From NCBI GenBank assembly GCA_964426735.1, contig CAYRRP010000004.1, positions 25,142-88,448 on the forward strand: 63,307 bases of DNA, read 5' to 3'. A program made the position numbers and the translations under genes. This stretch comes from an uncultured Candidatus Saccharibacteria bacterium (GTDB lineage Bacteria; Patescibacteriota; Minisyncoccia; Phycocordibacterales; DATDWN01). The notes beneath the pieces were generated by a model, which worked only from the letters and a program-made list of their open reading frames with translations, did not search any database and was not told the origin of the DNA. This document shows positions 1 to 61,677 of the stretch, piece by piece. Position 1 is the first letter of the stretch. Each line of letters begins with the position of its first letter.

Positions 1-55
1 CGTGGGCCGGAGGAAATCTCAATTCGACGGAATTGAGATTATCCAAAGGCACAAA
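1..55. repeat. 55-nt direct repeat, copy 1 (truncated by window edge?)
   Basis: CGTGGGCCGGAGGAAATCTCAATTCGACGGAATTGAGATTATCCAAAGGCACAAA recurs identically at 130-184. It contains the hairpin TCTCAATTC-GACG-GAATTGAGA. Confidence 0.8.
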
Positions 56-129
56 TAATCTACTACTCCAGATTTTTGCTTTATGTGCTCGACGGAGCCA
101 TGTTTTTGTACCAACAAAAACGGGCGAGT

Positions 130-184
130 CGTGGGCCGGAGGAAATCTCAATTCGACGGAATTGAGATTATCCAAAGGCACAAA
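130..184. repeat. 55-nt direct repeat, copy 2
   Basis: Identical to 1-55 and separated from it by a 74-nt unique spacer. Confidence 0.8.
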
Positions 185-204
185 AATATCTAAGGTTAGT
201 TTTT

Positions 205-996
205 ATGTGTTATATTTTATATATGAGTATTGCACAACTCCTTTTGCCAAGAGAGAAGTTTTCAGAAGCTTTTGATAATTATGGACAATCTCCACTTACT
301 TTTGAAATTGAGAAAGAAGGTCAATTATTATTTTATTTTGGAGCAAATCATTCTCATGATCCAGAAAATTATCAATATCCAGTACTTAGAGAATATTGGA
401 ATAGATTTTTGGAAACTACAATAAATAAAGAAAGATTAATTTTAGTAGAGGATACTCAGCGAAGTATACAAATAGATGAGGTGACAGCTATAAAATGTGG
501 TGCTGAGGGAGACTTTGTTTCCTTTCTTGGTGCTCAAACAAATATTAAAAACATTTCTCCTGATATTACTTTAGAAAAACTTGCGAAAAAGTTTCCAGAA
601 ATTCCAGAGGAAGAGGTCCTGTTGTATAGGTTTCTTGATGTGGTTAATGCATTTCAGAGACATCACCTTTCGAGTCCATTTGAGGATGTTGTGAATAATT
701 GGTGTGAAGATAAAAAACAGAAAGGGTTTGATGTTTCTCTGGATAAACTAAAAGATCTGTATAAAAATATTCTCGGCAAAGAATTTGATTTAAAAGATGC
801 TATGAATAACCTAGTTAATCCAAATAATACAGGAACTCGAATTAACGAAATAGCTCGATTGTTATCTGATGCTCGAGAAGTAAACATTGTTTCAGAAATA
901 GAGAAATATTGGAAAGAAGGCAAAAGTTTATTTGTAGTTTTTGGGTCAGGACATTTGGTCGTTCAAAGACCTGCTTTGGAAAAACTTTTGATTTAA
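205..996 (+). CDS. Hypothetical protein, possibly TraB/GumN/Tiki-like
   Basis: Long ORF with alternative ATG at 223. An N-proximal FGANHSHD and a C-terminal FGSGHLV resemble the paired GxxH motifs of the TraB/GumN family. The family assignment is weak. Confidence 0.55.
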   Translation: MCYILYMSIAQLLLPREKFSEAFDNYGQSPLTFEIEKEGQLLFYFGANHSHDPENYQYPVLREYWNRFLETTINKERLILVEDTQRSIQIDEVTAIKCGAEGDFVSFLGAQTNIKNISPDITLEKLAKKFPEIPEEEVLLYRFLDVVNAFQRHHLSSPFEDVVNNWCEDKKQKGFDVSLDKLKDLYKNILGKEFDLKDAMNNLVNPNNTGTRINEIARLLSDAREVNIVSEIEKYWKEGKSLFVVFGSGHLVVQRPALEKLLI

Positions 997-1054
997 TTTT
1001 TGCGACACAAGATATTTGACCTCGGATTTTATATCGTCGCAAAGCTTCGCTTTG

Positions 1055-1114
1055 CTCATCGCGCACAATTAAAAACACCCTCATGTGAGAGTGTTTTTAA
1101 TTGTGCGCGATGAG
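1055..1114. terminator. Perfect 24-bp palindrome (bidirectional terminator-like) that incorporates the tRNA-Val 3' acceptor strand
   Basis: CTCATCGCGCACAATTAAAAACAC (1055-1078) pairs with GTGTTTTTAATTGTGCGCGATGAG (1091-1114). The right arm overlaps the tRNA-Val 3' end. Confidence 0.7.
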
Positions 1115-1176
1115 GGACTCGAACCCCCGGCATCTTCAGTGTAAATGAAGCGCTCTACCAGCTGAGCTAATCGCGC
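1104..1176 (-). tRNA. tRNA-Val (anticodon TAC)
   Basis: The reverse complement folds as a cloverleaf: acceptor GCGCGAT/ATCGCGC, D arm AGCTCAGCTGGTAGAGC, anticodon loop TTTACAC, T arm GGGGGTTCGAGTCCCTC. Confidence 0.9.
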
Positions 1177-1268
1177 GATAAGATACAGTGTACATAAACT
1201 AGTAGATAATTTCAAGGTGTGGATAAATATACTAGTTAATCATCTATTATAAAAGGTATACTCTACTT

Positions 1269-1940
1269 ATGAAAGTTGTTGAAAGAGAACGGTCAATAAA
1301 GCTTAGAAAGCAAGGCAAATCTATTAACCAGATTGTCTTAGAAACAGGTTTTTCAAAAGCAAGTGTAAGTGTTTGGGTTAGAAGTGTTAAACTGACGAGA
1401 AATCAGATGAACAAGCTTTCTCTAAAAGGGAGGAGTGTTGAGTCTATAGAAAAAAGAAGATTGAATAGGCTTATTAACGAGCAAAAAAGAAGACGGTTGG
1501 TTATAGATGAGGCAAAAAAGGATTTCCAGAAAATATCCCTTGATGATTTAAAGCTTACTGGAACTATTTTATATTTGGGAGAGGGTACTAAAAGCAATAA
1601 AGGGATGGTTGTTATCACCAACAGTGATCCTGTGATTATAAAGATTGCAGCTAAATTTCTCAGAAAAGTATGTCAGGTTTCAGAAAGTAAATTTCGAGGA
1701 CATATCCATACGTTTTCTAGTGCTAACATAAAAAAGACTGAGGATTATTGGGCTAATGTGTCGGGAATACCTAAACGTCAGTTTTATAAAACATATATAA
1801 AACCAAGTTCGGCGAGTTTACAAAAAAGACAAACGCTACCGTTTGGGACATTTAGTATATCAACAAATGACACGAAACTTTTTTTAAAAATTATGGGATG
1901 GATTGAAAAAATAAAAGAATTAGTTGTAAATGATTTATAA
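1269..1940 (+). CDS. HTH domain plus LAGLIDADG-like endonuclease-fold protein
   Basis: N-terminal resolvase-type HTH (KQGKSINQIVLETGFSKASVSVWV). This is followed by LYLGEGTK...VVITNSDP, which is typical of single-motif LAGLIDADG-like proteins. Confidence 0.55.
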   Translation: MKVVERERSIKLRKQGKSINQIVLETGFSKASVSVWVRSVKLTRNQMNKLSLKGRSVESIEKRRLNRLINEQKRRRLVIDEAKKDFQKISLDDLKLTGTILYLGEGTKSNKGMVVITNSDPVIIKIAAKFLRKVCQVSESKFRGHIHTFSSANIKKTEDYWANVSGIPKRQFYKTYIKPSSASLQKRQTLPFGTFSISTNDTKLFLKIMGWIEKIKELVVNDL

Positions 1941-1953
1941 TAAGCCTGTAGAT

Positions 1954-2637
1954 ATGAATACAAAAGATAAACATCTGTGTGTAGGAGTCATTATGGACGG
2001 TAATCGTCGGTGGGCAAAAAAACGAAACCTTCCTGTTTTTATGGGTCATATGCAAGGATATGAGACCTTAAAATCACTTCTTGAGTGGGTAAAAGAGACC
2101 TCTGTGCGCACGATTATTGCGTATGCATTTTCAGTAGAAAACTGGAATCGTACCAAAGAAGAGGTTGGTTATATTTTGGATTTATTTCGTAAAGTACTCA
2201 CCAGTGAAATCACAGAACTTATTGAGAAAAAAATAAAAGTTCGGTTTATTGGAAATCTTTCACGTTTTCCTGAAGATATACAAGTATTAATGAAATCTGT
2301 TGAAGAAAAAACAAGACATTATACAGACTTCAATCTTGTTCTTGCGGTGTCATATGGAGGAAGGGAAGAGGTTATACATGCAGTAAATACTCAGTATAAA
2401 CAAGAGGGTTTATGTACCACAGATGGTCTAAAAAAATACCTATACACAAAAGATATCCCGGATCCTGATATGATTATTCGCACTTCAGGAGAGAAACGAT
2501 TATCTGGATTTTTACTCTGGCAGTCGAGTTACAGTGAATTGTTTTTTACTGATACGTTATGGCCTGATTTCTCTAAAGATGAATTTTTAGGTATGATGCG
2601 GGAATACACAGAACGCATACGACGTTTCGGTGTCTAA
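1954..2637 (+). CDS. uppS: Undecaprenyl-diphosphate synthase (cis-isoprenyl transferase)
   Basis: Motifs GVIMDGNRRWA, AYAFSVENWNR, RTSGEKRLSGFLLWQSSYSELFF. The start is chosen at the ATG just after the upstream stop. Confidence 0.9.
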   Translation: MNTKDKHLCVGVIMDGNRRWAKKRNLPVFMGHMQGYETLKSLLEWVKETSVRTIIAYAFSVENWNRTKEEVGYILDLFRKVLTSEITELIEKKIKVRFIGNLSRFPEDIQVLMKSVEEKTRHYTDFNLVLAVSYGGREEVIHAVNTQYKQEGLCTTDGLKKYLYTKDIPDPDMIIRTSGEKRLSGFLLWQSSYSELFFTDTLWPDFSKDEFLGMMREYTERIRRFGV

Positions 2638-2643
2638 AAAATT

Positions 2644-3378
2644 ATGGAACCAACTATTTTATATGAGGACAAAGATATTGTGGCAATCAATAAACCGAGT
2701 GGTTTGGTGGTGCATGGAGACGCCCTGTCTGCGCGGGCAGGTAAATCCATAGAAAAAACTTTGGTTGACTGGGTCAAAGATAAATTTCCAAACATAGAGG
2801 GTGTGGGTGAGCCGATTGAGCTTACTGATGAAGATTTTATTGACCGACCGGGTATTGTTCATCGACTCGACAAAGACACATCAGGGGTGATGCTTGTCGC
2901 AAAAACCAAAGAAGGTTTTGAAACACTAAAGAATCAGTTTCAAGAGCGTGAGATTAAAAAAATATATCATGCATTTGTATATGGAGTACCAAAACACGAA
3001 CGAGGACTAATCGATAAGCCGATAGGACGCAGTCAGCATGATATTCGTATGTGGTCATCCGAGAGGGGTGCGCGAGGATTAAAACGTGAGGCAACAACAC
3101 GATATGTAGTAAAAGAGTCTGGTCATGGAGTTGCTTTTCTGCAAATCATGCCAGAGACGGGACGAACACATCAAATTAGAGTTCATTTTAAGGCTATACG
3201 ACATCCGCTTGTAGGAGATAGTCTCTATGCTCCTACTATGCCCCAGGTACTTGGTTTTACACGTACCGCACTCCATGCACGTAGTATAGAATTTGTTAAT
3301 TGCCAAGGTAAAATAGTTAAAGTGGAAGCTCCATACCCGGCAGATTTTGAGCAAGGGCTTACGTTGTTGCGGAATTAG
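2644..3378 (+). CDS. RluA-family pseudouridine synthase
   Basis: Catalytic motif HRLDKDTSGVMLVAK and the C-terminal GRTHQIRVH motif. Confidence 0.85.
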   Translation: MEPTILYEDKDIVAINKPSGLVVHGDALSARAGKSIEKTLVDWVKDKFPNIEGVGEPIELTDEDFIDRPGIVHRLDKDTSGVMLVAKTKEGFETLKNQFQEREIKKIYHAFVYGVPKHERGLIDKPIGRSQHDIRMWSSERGARGLKREATTRYVVKESGHGVAFLQIMPETGRTHQIRVHFKAIRHPLVGDSLYAPTMPQVLGFTRTALHARSIEFVNCQGKIVKVEAPYPADFEQGLTLLRN

Positions 3379-3405
3379 TATATATATGTTAGATTGATTG
3401 ACATT

Positions 3406-3837
3406 ATGGCAACGGCAACAACACCACAAAAAACTATACATTCTCCAGTTTCTATCGTTGATCGAAAGAAGATGGATATTCGATCTGGAGATACGATTCG
3501 AGTATGGCAAAAGATTCAAGAAAAAGGAAAGACTCGACTTCAGGCGTTTGAAGGTCTTGTTATTGCAGTAAAACATGGGAAAGAGGCAGGTTCTACATTT
3601 ACAGTACGAAAAGTTGCTTCAGGAGTGGGTGTTGAGAAAATTTTCCCACTTTACTCTCCAATGATTGACTCAGTGGAAACTATCAAACGAGCAAAAGTAC
3701 GACGAGCAAAGCTTTATCACATCCGAGACAAGGCAGCAAAAGAAATTCGTCGACAGATGCGAAATACTCGATCAGCAAAAGCTACAGAGGAAACAGAAGG
3801 GGATGCAGAAGAAACAGCAGATCAAGCTTCAGAATAA
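3406..3837 (+). CDS. rplS: 50S ribosomal protein L19 with acidic C-terminal extension
   Basis: IRSGDTIRVWQKIQEKGKTRLQAFEGLVIAVKHG...FTVRKV..GVGVEKIFPLYSP matches the L19 core. Confidence 0.9.
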   Translation: MATATTPQKTIHSPVSIVDRKKMDIRSGDTIRVWQKIQEKGKTRLQAFEGLVIAVKHGKEAGSTFTVRKVASGVGVEKIFPLYSPMIDSVETIKRAKVRRAKLYHIRDKAAKEIRRQMRNTRSAKATEETEGDAEETADQASE

Positions 3838-3921
3838 TCTACTCAAAAAAACACCACCATGGTGTTTTTTGTTGCGGATAAATTAGTAGACTATATAGTG
3901 TGAGGTTATTATAATATATAA

Positions 3922-4602
3922 ATGGAAGGGGATTCAAAAAGAGGACCAAAACCAAAAAAAATTATAGATGAAACCTGGCGACCTGATTTGGCTTACGCTA
4001 TCGGACTACTTGCATCTGATGGGTGTTTGTCGAGTGATGGTTTGCTGATTGATTTAACCTCAAACGAAAGAGAGCAATTAGAAAATTATTCCAAATGTCT
4101 CGGTGTTAATTTTACAATAGGGGAGAAAAAAGCTAACCATGGTATTAAGTATTTAAGGGTTCAATTTAAAAATCGTATTTTCTATAACTTTCTATTATCA
4201 ATCGGACTGACAAGAAAAAAATCTTTAACTCTCAATAAACTTGCTATACCAGATAAATACTTTTTTGATTTTTTAAGAGGACTTTTTGATGGGGATGGTT
4301 GTAGTTATAGTTACTGGGATCCTCGATGGAAATCAAGTTTTATGTTTTATGTTGGTTTTACATCTGGAAGTAAAGATTTTATTTACTGGATTCGACAAGA
4401 AATAAAAAACAAGATAGGAATAAATGGGCATATTACAAAGTCAAAAAGAAAAAATCCTTGTTATCAAATTAAATATGCAAAAAATGAAGCTATTAAATTG
4501 ATCCAACAAATGTATAAAAACAATAAATGTGTTTGCTTGAGTAGGAAAAGGTTGAAAATTAATGAATCTTTAGGTACTATAGGCGTACCTCTAATTGGTT
4601 AA
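3922..4602 (+). CDS. Free-standing double-motif LAGLIDADG homing endonuclease
   Basis: Two LAGLIDADG motifs are present: LAYAIGLLASDGCL and FLRGLFDGDGC. Confidence 0.85.
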   Translation: MEGDSKRGPKPKKIIDETWRPDLAYAIGLLASDGCLSSDGLLIDLTSNEREQLENYSKCLGVNFTIGEKKANHGIKYLRVQFKNRIFYNFLLSIGLTRKKSLTLNKLAIPDKYFFDFLRGLFDGDGCSYSYWDPRWKSSFMFYVGFTSGSKDFIYWIRQEIKNKIGINGHITKSKRKNPCYQIKYAKNEAIKLIQQMYKNNKCVCLSRKRLKINESLGTIGVPLIG

Positions 4603-4621
4603 GTCTAGTGTATGAAAATTT

Positions 4622-4706
4622 GCCCAGGTGTCGTAATTGGTAGCCGAGCACCCTTGAGGTGGGTGTGCCGTAAGGTGTGGAGGTTCGAGTCCTCTCCTGG
4701 GCACCA
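4622..4706 (+). tRNA. tRNA-Leu (anticodon GAG), CCA encoded
   Basis: Acceptor GCCCAGG/CCTGGGC, anticodon loop TTGAGGT, long variable arm, T arm GGAGGTTCGAGTCCTCT, 3' ACCA. Confidence 0.9.
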
Positions 4707-4745
4707 TAAGAAAAAACCGCTTAATGCGGTTTTTTCTTATGGTGC
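4701..4745. terminator. Perfect 20-bp palindrome that includes the tRNA-Leu 3' end and CCA
   Basis: GCACCATAAGAAAAAACCGC (4701-4720) pairs with GCGGTTTTTTCTTATGGTGC (4726-4745). Confidence 0.75.
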
Positions 4746-4793
4746 ACAGAGCAAAGCAAAGCTTTGCGGAGAGGACTCGAACGACGACCCATC

Positions 4794-6071
4794 CTATTTC
4801 TTCGACGGCAATATAATCTCCGTCACGGTATACGCTGGGTCTGTGAGATATATTCCTATATTTTGCATATCTTCAAATGTCATTGTTTCCCGATCTTCGA
4901 TATTCTCAGTAAGTTTTTTTATAGTGTTGGTACGAACAACCTCAGATGTTACATTGTGTGCAATATCTTCACTATCGTGCTCACTTGCTCGAAGTTGTTC
5001 AAGACTTATATGGCGCATTTGTTCAAAACGATTTTTATATACATCTGTATGCGTGAGAAGTTTGATTTGTTCTTTGATTACATCGAGCACAATAACCTTG
5101 TGTTCTTCAGAGGTTTTGATATCAATAGAAAAATTAACATAATGAGCGCCGCGTCTGCTTGATACGTGGACTCCATAACAGAGTGGTTGTTCATCTCGGA
5201 GTTTCTCATGCAAGATATCCTGAAGTACTCGTCGGAACACATGCTCGTGGTCTCGAGGGTTTCCTCGGATATCTTTATGTAGGGAAATGTTTATCTCAAC
5301 CTGTTCTTTTACAAGACCGATTTCATCGGCTATTTTTACAATCTCATTGATGAGAGGAAGTGGAGTTTTTTCTGTAGTATTTTCTGTACGTAGGCCTTTT
5401 GGAAGTGTGTGTATTATTTCTTCCAAATCATGCAAAGATGAATCTTGAATATTTCCCACAAGAATAATATTCATGTTGACTGTGTGATAATGATTTTTGT
5501 GCCACAAACGCACATCCTCGGCAGTGATACCATTGATACTCTCGGGCCAACCAAGTGCACTTGAGACTCGTGAGAGTGAGTGACCAGGAAATACTTTTTG
5601 AGTAAATTCATGGATATAGGAAAGAAGTTTTTCATTTTGAAAATATCCCCACGCTTCCTGAGTGATCACTTTTCTTTCATGTTCAACATCCTCATCTCGA
5701 AGAAGAGGGGAGAAAATCTGCTCCGTCATTTTTTCAAGTACTGGTTTGAATTTTTCCGGAAGGCATTTGAGGTGGTAAGCAGTGTTGTAGTGCCCGGTGT
5801 ACGCATTCCATGTATCAAGTGTTTCATTTTTTCTCCACTCATTTACTTCTTTTCGGTCGGCAAAACTCGGTGAGCCGTCAAATATCATATGTTCGAGAAA
5901 ATGAGACAACCCTTCTTTTCCTCCTGGATCTTTAAACGCACCAGTATTAAATGAAATATATACATGAATACATGGCGCCCATGGGAGGTTCTTGTAATAC
6001 ACGGGCACATCGTTGATTTCTTTTTTAGAGAAATCATACGGGTCAAATGCAAGAGGTTTTGATTGTGTCAT
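4794..6071 (-). CDS. M16 (pitrilysin/insulinase) family zinc peptidase
   Basis: Inverted zinc motif HFLEHMIF (HxxEH) near the N-terminus. Size of about 425 aa fits the family. Confidence 0.85.
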   Translation of the reverse strand: MTQSKPLAFDPYDFSKKEINDVPVYYKNLPWAPCIHVYISFNTGAFKDPGGKEGLSHFLEHMIFDGSPSFADRKEVNEWRKNETLDTWNAYTGHYNTAYHLKCLPEKFKPVLEKMTEQIFSPLLRDEDVEHERKVITQEAWGYFQNEKLLSYIHEFTQKVFPGHSLSRVSSALGWPESINGITAEDVRLWHKNHYHTVNMNIILVGNIQDSSLHDLEEIIHTLPKGLRTENTTEKTPLPLINEIVKIADEIGLVKEQVEINISLHKDIRGNPRDHEHVFRRVLQDILHEKLRDEQPLCYGVHVSSRRGAHYVNFSIDIKTSEEHKVIVLDVIKEQIKLLTHTDVYKNRFEQMRHISLEQLRASEHDSEDIAHNVTSEVVRTNTIKKLTENIEDRETMTFEDMQNIGIYLTDPAYTVTEIILPSKK

Positions 6072-6218
6072 GTGTTGAGTATATGGCTAAAGTGTATGTC
6101 GGGGCAAGAGGGTGTAGTTTTTGGTTTGTTGTCTGTGTAAGTAAGGATGGTGGTTTCTGTATTTACAGAAGCCACCATCTTTACTTGAAAAAATTAATTT
6201 GCTAAAATTTAAATCAAG

Positions 6219-6725
6219 ATGGTAAGTGTATTTTGCATGTTTTGTTCAAAAAATTTTTCCACCAAACCTTCCTGGGTAGCAAGGGGATATGGAAAGTATT
6301 GCAGTATGACATGTAAGATAAAAGCTCAAAAAACAGGTCAGATTGTAAATTGTGCTGTGTGCGGAAAAGAGACGTATAAAACCATAAAAGCACTTAGGTT
6401 ATCTAAAAGTAAAAAATATTTTTGCAATAAATCTTGTCAGGCTATATGGAGAAATGCTGAGTTTGTAGGGGAAAAACACTCAAATTACATCTCAGGTAAA
6501 TCTTCGTATAAAAGTATTTTAACTAGAAATAAATTTCCTAAGATTTGTGGTTTGTGTGGTACGGAGGATGTGAGGGTGTTGGCAGTGCATCATGTTGATG
6601 GTAATCATTATAATAATGAAGTTAATAATTTAGCTTGGCTGTGTCATAATTGCCATCACCTAGTACATCATGATAATGTAGAAAAGCTTAAGTTTGCAGG
6701 TATACATAGACTTAGAGCGCAGTAA
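6219..6725 (+). CDS. HNH endonuclease with N-terminal Cys-rich zinc ribbons
   Basis: HHVDGNHYNNEVNNLAWLCHNCHHLVHH is an HNH core. Upstream CxxC pairs (CMFC, CSMTC, CAVC, CNKSC) are present. Confidence 0.85.
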   Translation: MVSVFCMFCSKNFSTKPSWVARGYGKYCSMTCKIKAQKTGQIVNCAVCGKETYKTIKALRLSKSKKYFCNKSCQAIWRNAEFVGEKHSNYISGKSSYKSILTRNKFPKICGLCGTEDVRVLAVHHVDGNHYNNEVNNLAWLCHNCHHLVHHDNVEKLKFAGIHRLRAQ

Positions 6726-6726
6726 T

Positions 6727-6801
6727 GGTGACTATAGTTTAGTGGTAAAACTCCGGTTTGTGGAACCGGTATCGAGAGTCCGATTCTCTCTAGTCACCCC
6801 A
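6727..6801 (+). tRNA. tRNA-His (anticodon GTG) with encoded G-1 and CCA
   Basis: An extra 5' G pairs with C73. Acceptor GTGACTA/TAGTCAC and anticodon loop TTGTGGA. It starts 1 nt after the HNH stop codon. Confidence 0.9.
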
Positions 6802-6888
6802 CAATGAATTTGTATGTTTGTCAAATACTAAAAAATCCCTACTTGGTGGGATTTTTTAGTTCTATGTAACTCATGATACTCTTTAGTA

Positions 6889-7356
6889 ATGAGAGCGACT
6901 ATAAAAAAGTTAATCAGATTTTTTAGACCTGTCTATTGGCCACTTATAAAAGCTTATTTTATTTTGTTTAGTCCTGAAACTAAAGGAGCGAGAATTATTC
7001 TTACATATAAAAATGAAATTCTTTTTATAAGACATAGTTATGGACTCAAGTATAATTTTCCAGGTGGAGGAATTGGAAAATCTGAAGATCCAGAAGATGG
7101 GGTAAAAAGAGAGGTGAGGGAAGAGTTGGGCATTGATCTTGATAAGGTTCACTACATTACTTCACTTGTGCCAGATGTAGCATATGAGTATAGAAAAAAC
7201 ACGATATCAATCTTTACTGCAGAATTACAAACTAAAGATATTAACATTAACAATTTAGAAATTGCGGATGCACAATGGTTGCCACTCACCAACCCTCCCT
7301 CGCTTGGACATGTTGCATATCAAATCTTCCAGTTGTATAAAACAACTAAGGTTTAA
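6889..7356 (+). CDS. NUDIX hydrolase
   Basis: Nudix box GGGIGKSEDPEDGVKREVREELGI. Confidence 0.85.
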   Translation: MRATIKKLIRFFRPVYWPLIKAYFILFSPETKGARIILTYKNEILFIRHSYGLKYNFPGGGIGKSEDPEDGVKREVREELGIDLDKVHYITSLVPDVAYEYRKNTISIFTAELQTKDININNLEIADAQWLPLTNPPSLGHVAYQIFQLYKTTKV

Positions 7357-7422
7357 GGTTATAAACTTCCCAACAAAACAGAACAAGTAGATAATATAGG
7401 TATTAATTATTAATATTTTTAT

Positions 7423-7968
7423 ATGTCATACGTTGTCATTGAAGAGTCTCCTGTGTCTAAGTTTTTATTTTCAAATACTAAAACAGCGGTGTTTTGGTTT
7501 GTTGTTCGTTTGTATGTAGGGTGGGAGTGGTTGGTAGCTGGATGGGCTAAGGTGTTTAACCCTCTATGGATAGGGACTGATGCAGGAAAAGCAATCACTG
7601 GATTTGTGCAAGGTGCATTACAAAAAACAGGCGGAGCTCATCCGGATGTAACAGGGTGGTATGCAGCGTTTCTTCAAAACTCAGTGCTTCCTCATGCAAA
7701 GGTGTGGTCGTATGCAGTTGCATATGGAGAAGTACTTGTAGGAGTAGGTCTTATTGTTGGATGTTTTGTGGGTATTGCCGCATTCTTTGGTTTGTTTATG
7801 AACCTAAATTATCTGCTCGCAGGTACAGTAAGTACAAACCCTATTTTATTTGTACTTTCTATTGGACTTATTCTTGCGTGGAAGGTTGCAGGGTATTGGG
7901 GATTAGATCGGTATATGTTACCAAAACTGGGTGTACCCTGGAAATCAAACTCATTTTTTAGGAGTTAG
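7423..7968 (+). CDS. DoxX/DoxD-like integral membrane protein
   Basis: Four predicted TM helices. RLYVGWEWLVAGWAKV and the overall layout resemble the DoxX family. Confidence 0.6.
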   Translation: MSYVVIEESPVSKFLFSNTKTAVFWFVVRLYVGWEWLVAGWAKVFNPLWIGTDAGKAITGFVQGALQKTGGAHPDVTGWYAAFLQNSVLPHAKVWSYAVAYGEVLVGVGLIVGCFVGIAAFFGLFMNLNYLLAGTVSTNPILFVLSIGLILAWKVAGYWGLDRYMLPKLGVPWKSNSFFRS

Positions 7969-8039
7969 GTCAGCATACTCACTTTCGTTGTTTTTTGTGG
8001 TACACTGATTATCCTTTACGTCATATAAATATATATCAT

Positions 8040-61602: not shown

Positions 61603-61677
61603 GCATCGGTCGTCTAATGGTTAGGACATCGGACTCTTAATCCGAAAATTGGGGTTCGAGTCCCTGCTGATGCGCCA
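61603..61677 (+). tRNA. tRNA-Lys (anticodon CTT), CCA encoded, nested in the 23S insertion
   Basis: Acceptor GCATCGG/CTGATGC (one G-U pair), U8, 3-bp D stem GTC/GAC, anticodon stem TCGGA/TCCGA with loop CTCTTAA, T arm TGGGG-TTCGAGT-CCCTG, discriminator G, CCA. Confidence 0.8.

Follow-up and report, generated by a model that had tools for sequence, protein, structure and literature searches.

Intron-less nuclease genes beside tRNA genes of a Patescibacteria genome are probable homing cassettes, each specialised on one tRNA

In a 63,307-nucleotide (nt) stretch of DNA from an uncultured Candidatus Saccharibacteria bacterium (contig C4:25142-88448; hereafter the window), three open reading frames (ORFs) on the + strand, at 1269-1940, 3922-4602 and 6219-6725, encode nucleases and lie next to the genes for tRNA-Val, tRNA-Leu and tRNA-His, respectively. 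We conclude that these three genes are probably intron-less homing cassettes which target tRNA genes, each specialised on one of them, and which co-convert the promoter and the tRNA along with the nuclease gene. The genome they come from is small (889,554 bp, 97% complete, 38 tRNA genes), and the best-named homologues of the window proteins belong to Candidatus Zambryskibacteria, Nomurabacteria and Paceibacterota, i.e., to the Patescibacteria or candidate phyla radiation (CPR). ARAGORN and the ORF calls agreed on the pairings and positions given in a preliminary description of this DNA (Table 1). By the ARAGORN bounds, the gaps between ORF and tRNA gene are 92 nt for Val, where the two genes are divergent, 19 nt for Leu and 2 nt for His; counting the encoded G-1 at 6727, only 1 nt separates the stop codon of the HNH gene from the mature 5' end of tRNA-His. 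The gene order tRNA-Val / uppS-rluD-rplS / tRNA-Leu(GAG) / M16 peptidase / tRNA-His is kept across the order. All three nuclease genes are free-standing, as had been stated: an Rfam scan of positions 1-8000 at the gathering threshold gave tRNAs only, and each ORF has a start codon of its own with no fusion to a host gene, leaving no surrounding intron or intein.

The adjacency to tRNA genes extends to the whole genome. A tblastn search of the genome gave four further genes of this kind, one with a LAGLIDADG_3 domain and three with a helix-turn-helix (HTH) plus LAGLIDADG architecture, each abutting a tRNA gene (Cys, Lys, Tyr or Gln), and all seven such genes within 0.89 Mb touch a tRNA gene. 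Six of the seven end at most 19 nt upstream of a co-oriented tRNA gene or overlap it by at most 18 nt, compared to 10/919 other ORFs ending at most 150 nt upstream of one (Fisher p = 6e-11). The background set held 926 crude ORFs of at least 80 amino acids (aa), of which 16, including the six nuclease genes, end within 150 nt upstream; a 377-aa HNH_5 ORF (C2:24458) and a 443-aa GIY-YIG ORF, probably UvrC, were left out of the count, and neither is tRNA-adjacent. Chance adjacency was rejected on this test. The earlier argument that three cases within 6 kb are unlikely to be coincidental was sound as far as the adjacency goes, while the three are not an isolated cluster but part of a pattern seen genome-wide and, as described below, phylum-wide.

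In a set of 40-60 related genomes, 80/85 loci with a homologue had a tRNA gene within ~110 nt. By family, this was the case for 26/28 HTH-LAGLIDADG loci, 28/28 LAGLIDADG_3 loci (24 good and 4 weak) and 26/29 HNH-related loci; three of the HNH-related loci hold the upstream member of a tandem pair, and another two are ~225 nt away from a tRNA gene. In nearly every case the tRNA gene comes next downstream in the same orientation, and the stop codon of the nuclease gene falls between -47 and +50 of the tRNA 5' end; an exact overlap of 10 nt recurs, by which the stop codon comes to lie near tRNA positions 8-10. Among 301 genomes sampled evenly across the phylum, 64 contained the HTH-LAGLIDADG family (0-9 copies per genome), and 25 of the 29 loci fetched from this sample were directly upstream of a tRNA gene.

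On alignment, the catalytic residues are present in all three window proteins, which can be regarded as intact nucleases, as the preliminary description had them. The product of ORF 3922-4602 matched Pfam LAGLIDADG_3 (PF14528) in two stretches (E 2e-10) and, over residues 25-195, the solved archaeal intron enzyme I-Tsp061I (2dch; E 5.5e-5); the acidic residues of its two motifs, ...LLASDG (D33) and ...LFDGDG (D125), are both conserved in the paralogue. For ORF 6219-6725, models of HNH families gave sub-threshold matches only, and an alignment of 12 sequences showed two N-terminal Cys4 fingers and an intact Cys4/HNH motif, with C110, C113, H124, H125, N137, C142, C145, H146 and H150 invariant. 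A Pfam search of ORF 1269-1940 gave no LAGLIDADG match, and Pfam and NCBIfam together returned weak HTH matches and nothing else of use. A profile built from 32 sequences of this family, in turn, matched I-DmoI at E 1e-4, with "LYwaEGsK" of the profile aligned to "LYVAEGDK" of I-DmoI, which we take to be the second catalytic motif of that enzyme; E105, G106 and K108 are invariant in the family. In the AlphaFold model of the protein (predicted local distance difference test score, 90.6), structure matches placed a resolvase/transposase-type HTH at residues 1-42 and a single LAGLIDADG domain at residues 89-219. The best fold matches of the latter in a VIA-align scan were the TliVMA intein endonuclease (Z 7.7), I-DmoI (7.3), WhiA (7.1) and I-Tsp061I (6.4), all of them middling scores, and a Foldseek search of the same model against the PDB gave no LAGLIDADG match, only weak OmpA-like rows. 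Because sequence profile and fold agree, the label "HTH plus LAGLIDADG-like" given to this ORF earlier is right; its product is a single-domain LAGLIDADG enzyme, presumably acting as a homodimer.

The preliminary description had suggested comparing the same tRNA loci in related genomes for presence or absence of the nuclease genes, and there each gene was found intact, broken (with up to 5 stops) or absent at conserved synteny, in genomes of the same genus or family (Table 2; G000 is the genome of the window and the other G numbers are related genomes compared with it). Presence/absence polymorphism at a homologous site together with degenerate copies, by which homing genes are known, was recorded for all three, and the tRNA was intact at clean empty sites. 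Tandem pairs of the His-clade HNH gene occur in G005 (C8), G009 (C5) and G055 (C2), with 41-46% identity to the window protein; the upstream copy carries a stop in the first two of these genomes, while in G055 the pair is flanked by tRNA-His on one side and, on the other, by tRNA-Leu(GAG) with a LAGLIDADG gene of its own. For intact copies, the ratio of nonsynonymous to synonymous substitution rates (dN/dS) was 0.09-0.12 for the LAGLIDADG_3 gene of the Leu clade and 0.18 for the HNH gene (overall, 0.09-0.18), estimated at a dS of ~1.3, which is close to saturation. Judged by these ratios, the intact copies are under purifying selection.

Selection of this kind keeps in play an option that had been offered at the outset, i.e., that the genes are domesticated, former homing endonucleases which now serve as DNA-binding factors at tRNA loci, either regulating tRNA transcription or guarding the locus against other tRNA-targeting elements. 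In line with such a role, copies at syntenic sites have diverged to a similar degree as the flanking genes, homologues of the Val-clade protein number in the hundreds (62-80% identity for the best 120), and the ORFs overlap tRNA promoters (see below). The HTH-LAGLIDADG fold also matches WhiA (Z 6.1-7.1), a transcription factor of Gram-positive bacteria that likewise combines LAGLIDADG and HTH. WhiA, however, is a conserved single-copy gene whose product has two degenerate LAGLIDADG domains, a C-terminal HTH and no remaining catalytic residues, whereas the 1269-1940 protein has one domain, keeps the catalytic Glu and Lys, carries its HTH at the N terminus and is patchy and multi-copy. Catalytic residues are in fact invariant in all three families, the genes are patchily distributed even within a genus and vary in copy number, some copies contain stops or are fragments, three unrelated nuclease folds share the same habit, and empty sites are clean. 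With the patchiness and the pseudogenes speaking against it, we consider domestication unlikely.

Each nuclease family has a broad but ordered range of tRNA partners. HTH-LAGLIDADG genes were found with Gln, Lys, Tyr, Ile, Gly (two anticodons), Met, Val(GAC) and Thr, and in divergent arrangement with Val(UAC) and Trp; in the Val(UAC) clade the tRNA is always divergent and 90-95 nt away, with the same geometry in G002, G005 and G010. The partners of LAGLIDADG_3 genes are Leu(GAG), Leu(UAG), Cys, Asp, Ser and Tyr, and those of HNH genes are His, Ser, Leu(UAA), Lys and Thr. In a maximum-likelihood tree of 25 HTH-LAGLIDADG proteins, the clades corresponded to the tRNA partner, requiring 7 label changes, the minimum possible, and none of 200 shuffles gave a count as low as this. 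The upstream context of genes in the same clade varies by genome: the tRNA-His gene with its HNH partner follows the M16 peptidase gene in G000 and tRNA-Leu in G055, and the Gln-clade gene of G031 has other tRNA genes upstream. On the evidence of tree and context, the nuclease clades map one-to-one onto tRNA identity.

At the Leu locus, the relation between nuclease gene and tRNA gene could be followed further. A block common to 7/8 endonuclease-bearing genomes (TTGTGGATAAATTAGTAGAC...TGAGG) lies in the 50 nt before the endonuclease ATG and aligns in register with tRNA-Leu(GAG) positions ~4-38, from D-arm to anticodon loop. In the window, this stub of a tRNA gene consists of a D-arm, AAATTAGTAGAC, followed by the anticodon loop TGAGGT, and ends 15 nt before the ATG; a promoter-like TAGACT-N17-TATAAT found by scanning at 3887-3915 overlaps it. 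Scored against a panel of 22 tRNA-Leu(GAG) alleles, the stub was matched by at most 2% of shuffles at 6/8 loci. Comparison of the cognate tRNA with the 250 nt upstream under stringent scoring had detected no stub at nearly all loci, including that of the window, and a softer-scored test against the own tRNA was weak as well; since the allele panel and the conserved block revealed the stub, we regard both results as false negatives. As the stub ends at the anticodon loop, the founding insertion would have been inside the tRNA-Leu gene, near that loop. From these alignments, the LAGLIDADG_3 cassette appears to carry a complete replacement tRNA and to sit inside a split, duplicated tRNA-Leu gene. 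The gene had been described as parked next to tRNA-Leu; the gap of 19 nt is as reported, but a decayed tRNA-Leu half (3872-3906) lies on its upstream side as well.

Compared to the endonuclease-free genomes G001, G007 and G011, the extra DNA is located between the rplS terminator and a TTGAAA-N17-TACTAT...TACCTC block that also precedes tRNA-Leu in these three genomes. Because tRNA-Leu keeps this promoter-like block of its own, the 19-nt gap is no proof of co-transcription. For His, the site at 6650-6677 aligns with the TTGACT...TGGTATAAA promoters of endonuclease-free tRNA-His alleles. The preliminary description had read co-transcription of nuclease and tRNA from the tight spacing at Leu and His, but the spacing does not enforce it, as promoter-like sites lie within both ORFs (4552-4580 and 6650-6677); obligatory co-transcription was rejected on the same grounds.

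Two classes of tRNA-Leu(GAG) exist within the genus, with a mutual identity of only 78-82%; alleles found in other genera match each of them at 99-100%. The class present in G003, G005, G006, G016 and G019 always came with the endonuclease gene or what is left of it. In G000 and G002, the body is that of the other class but with four changes in the D-arm, while the endonuclease-free G001, G007 and G009 have that class unchanged, without the four D-arm changes. Allele discordance of the same kind was seen for tRNA-Gln. By sequence comparison, then, tRNA-Leu allele types ignore genus boundaries and follow the nuclease gene, if loosely; no D-arm base was found that separates all cassette-bearing from all cassette-free tRNA-Leu alleles.

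These findings bear on a further option raised earlier, that the genes hitch-hike: they would home into intergenic or promoter DNA, and spots near tRNA genes would merely be safe, well transcribed and processed by RNase P. Relative to the three endonuclease-free genomes, the Leu insert does fall between the terminator of rplS and the promoter of the tRNA, promoters are contained in the 3' ends of the ORFs, no stub was detected for His or Val, and stop codons often fall inside the tRNA at about position 8-10, which suggests coupling to tRNA processing. However, the clades follow tRNA identity even though their upstream neighbours differ, the position at which the tRNA-Leu stub ends puts the founding insertion within the tRNA gene, and tRNA-Leu alleles cross genera, one class solely with the gene or its remnants. 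We therefore judge hitch-hiking to be quite improbable. Two simpler origins are dismissed: an intron-encoded gene was ruled out by the lack of an intron in the Rfam results, and cargo of an integrase island by inserts of ~0.7 kb that hold one nuclease ORF on the 5' side of the tRNA, with no recombinase domain detected by Pfam in the three window proteins.

Among the options of the preliminary description, free-standing homing endonucleases that use tRNA genes or their alleles as targets is thus the best supported. In such a cycle, the enzyme would recognise a long site that lies within the partner tRNA gene, or 5' of it, in a cassette-free genome, and the resulting double-strand break would be repaired from cassette-carrying DNA, for example DNA taken up from relatives. 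The tract copied in repair would span the endonuclease gene, the promoter beside it and the tRNA allele, so that the essential tRNA would never be lost. The Leu cassette would accordingly be composed of an older tRNA 5'-half stub, the endonuclease gene, a tRNA promoter embedded in its ORF and a complete tRNA. Inferred in this cycle are cleavage itself, its precise target, the resistance of the allele already in place and the way in which DNA is exchanged.

Several observations weigh against homing at tRNA genes as we propose it. The correlation between allele and endonuclease is imperfect, in that some D-arm states of cassette-bearing genomes also occur in G012 and G015, which lack the endonuclease. 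Moreover, alleles with and without a cassette have the same tRNA-Gln 5' half and the same tRNA-Leu anticodon arm; self-immunity is therefore unexplained unless the four D-arm changes or the flank matter. No tRNA stub was detected by the same panel test upstream of the HNH gene at tRNA-His or in the tRNA-Val spacer. The G000 and G002 copies are about as diverged as their flanking genes (dS ~1.3), and part of the history must therefore be vertical; long vertical persistence fits this divergence as well as recent homing does. Finally, kinship among the genomes inflates the counts of tRNA-adjacent loci.

Taken further than the three window genes, the data could perhaps point to a guild of such elements in the Patescibacteria, an idea we put forward tentatively. 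Its members would be intron-less homing cassettes from at least three unrelated nuclease folds, each lineage dedicated to one tRNA species, which invade a tRNA gene and bring a replacement tRNA and an ORF-embedded promoter; selfish conversion would then drive much of the turnover of tRNA alleles, and expression of the nuclease would be coupled to transcription of the tRNA and its processing by RNase P.

A literature search on endonuclease genes at tRNA genes of CPR bacteria found no paper. Two parallels are closest. The first is SegB of phage T4, a free-standing GIY-YIG homing endonuclease with its gene among the clustered tRNA genes of that phage. Its site, 27 bp long, contains the TpsiC motif of tRNA, and the enzyme drives the inheritance of both its own gene and nearby tRNA genes (PMC2330249). 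The window genes resemble SegB in lacking an intron, in lying among tRNA genes and in a homing process that would take tRNA genes along, with a tRNA motif in the site. SegB, in contrast, is a phage gene of another nuclease family, with one enzyme per cluster and with neither a tRNA stub nor an ORF overlapping a promoter, whereas the window genes are cellular, and the Patescibacteria have dozens of clades from three families with one tRNA species each. The second is formed by the HNH genes in the tRNA region of phage T5, one of which (T5p073-type; hegA or F-TflIV in records of related phages) encodes a protein 49% identical in its core to residues 92-149 of the window HNH protein (E 3e-5). This gene is also located in a tRNA gene region, but 24 nt downstream of tRNA-Ile rather than upstream of a partner; the N-terminal part of its product has a LuxR-type motif where the window protein has two Cys4 fingers, and it acts in the setting of phage co-infection. 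The phage collection contained no relatives of the two LAGLIDADG-type window proteins. LAGLIDADG endonucleases (I-ShaI) have been reported from rRNA insertion sequences and introns of CPR bacteria, in a survey that makes no mention of tRNA (PMC11270868). These enzymes, like I-DmoI and I-Tsp061I, share with the window proteins the superfamily, similarity in sequence or profile and a patchy, homing-like distribution, and those of the CPR survey come from the same phylum. They differ in that the CPR rRNA and archaeal enzymes reside within introns of rRNA genes, while the window genes have tRNA partners, and in that the tRNA is kept whole by duplication instead of splicing.

Table 1. Positions in the window of the nuclease genes, their tRNA partners and associated elements
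Feature	Position	Strand	Basis
tRNA-Val(UAC)	1103-1176	-	ARAGORN; Rfam tRNA, 71 bits
Candidate tRNA-Val promoter, TTGAAA-N17-TACACT, within the 92-nt spacer	1187-1215	-	Consensus scan only
HTH-LAGLIDADG gene, 223 aa, tRNA-Val(UAC) clade	1269-1940	+	ORF, profile, model
Terminator hairpin and T-tract of rplS, forming the left border of the Leu cassette	3846-3873	+	Palindrome, sequence; kept in relatives
Decayed remnant of a tRNA-Leu(GAG) gene (5' half), matching tRNA positions ~4-38	3872-3906	+	Conserved block and panel alignments
LAGLIDADG_3 endonuclease gene, double motif, 226 aa, tRNA-Leu(GAG) clade	3922-4602	+	Pfam PF14528
tRNA-Leu promoter, TTGAAA-N17-TACTAT, inside the last 17 codons of the endonuclease ORF	4552-4580	+	Scan
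Intact tRNA-Leu(GAG), CCA encoded	4622-4706	+	ARAGORN
Hairpin, 23-bp arms, between the divergent M16 peptidase gene and the HNH gene	6139-6186	+	Inverted repeat
Gene with two Cys4 fingers and HNH, 168 aa, tRNA-His clade	6219-6725	+	ORF, alignment
Promoter-like TTGCCA-N16-GATAAT inside the HNH ORF, ~45 nt upstream of tRNA-His	6650-6677	+	Scan
tRNA-His(GUG), with encoded G-1 (6727) and CCA (6799-6801)	6727-6801	+	ARAGORN (6728-6801), Rfam, sequence reading

Table 2. State of the three nuclease genes at syntenic sites of related genomes
Gene	Present	Broken or remnant	Absent
Val-clade HTH-LAGLIDADG	G000, G002, G005, G010	None seen	G001, G003
Leu-clade LAGLIDADG	G000, G002, G005, G016, G019, G020, G026, G055	Broken in G003, G010 (5 stops); remnant in G006	G001, G007, G008, G011, G015, G027, G029, G032, G033
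His-clade HNH	Several genomes, as a single gene or in tandem	G005, G009 (one of the tandem copies broken)	G014, G007, G015

Further sequence features were noted around these tRNA genes. The Rfam tRNA model did not report tRNA-Leu(GAG) at the gathering threshold; ARAGORN does call it, and its cloverleaf reads as canonical class II. Directly 3' of it is a hairpin with 24-bp arms (4697-4782) that takes in the 3' end of the tRNA (CTGGGCACCA...), and an inverted copy of the T-arm (15/15) is found 70 nt further on. tRNA-Val has a 38-nt inverted repeat overlapping its 3' end (1046-1123), and with such repeats behind both tRNA-Leu and tRNA-Val, both ends of these tRNA genes would therefore be colonised. 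In the endonuclease-free tRNA-Val/uppS spacers of the same-genus genomes G001 (L050, C33, about 383-580) and G003 (L049, C16), there are one or two decayed copies of the first ~22 nt of tRNA-Val, with a match of 19/22 in G001; these copies probably mark where cassettes have been lost. An inverted 22-nt copy of a tRNA-Gln T-arm lies ahead of the Gln-clade gene of the window genome (contig C1, L009 about 1683-1704) and resembles the allele type of endonuclease-free relatives (19/22) and not the genome's own tRNA-Gln. In G002 and G023, the hairpin at 6139-6186 differs in sequence but still forms a hairpin; it may represent an operator, a terminator or the remains of a tRNA arm.

Elsewhere in the genome, two very different tRNA-Lys(CUU) genes are present, one in the window behind the rRNA operon (61603-61677) and one on contig C1 (34051-34124) directly behind an HTH-LAGLIDADG gene, an arrangement consistent with a spare tRNA brought by the endonuclease gene. 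tRNA-Phe(GAA) is likewise encoded twice. At the start of the window, downstream of tRNA-Arg(UCU), a perfect direct repeat of 55 nt occupies 1-55 and 130-184, at a spacing of 129 nt; each copy begins CGTGGGCCGGAGGAAAT and contains a hairpin, and a related unit, partly N-masked, lies behind tRNA-Lys on contig C1 (L007 about 1700-2030). Tandem repeats finder detected nothing in positions 1-1200.

To our knowledge, homing endonucleases have been thought to survive in essential genes only inside introns or inteins. In the genomes studied here, they seem to occupy essential tRNA genes of the cell with the help of neither, bringing a spare tRNA copy or taking a seat on the promoter instead, and the landing of nuclease genes at tRNA genes with copies of the tRNA is apparently a phylum-wide, unpublished habit. 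Such genes are mostly labelled "hypothetical protein", which makes this an issue for annotation also. Dozens of natural LAGLIDADG and HNH enzymes would become available whose targets, as tRNA genes, are predictable and highly conserved. The habit would account for the tRNA stubs, duplicated isoacceptors and discordant tRNA alleles in CPR genomes, and it offers a measure of DNA exchange in bacteria that are beyond culture.

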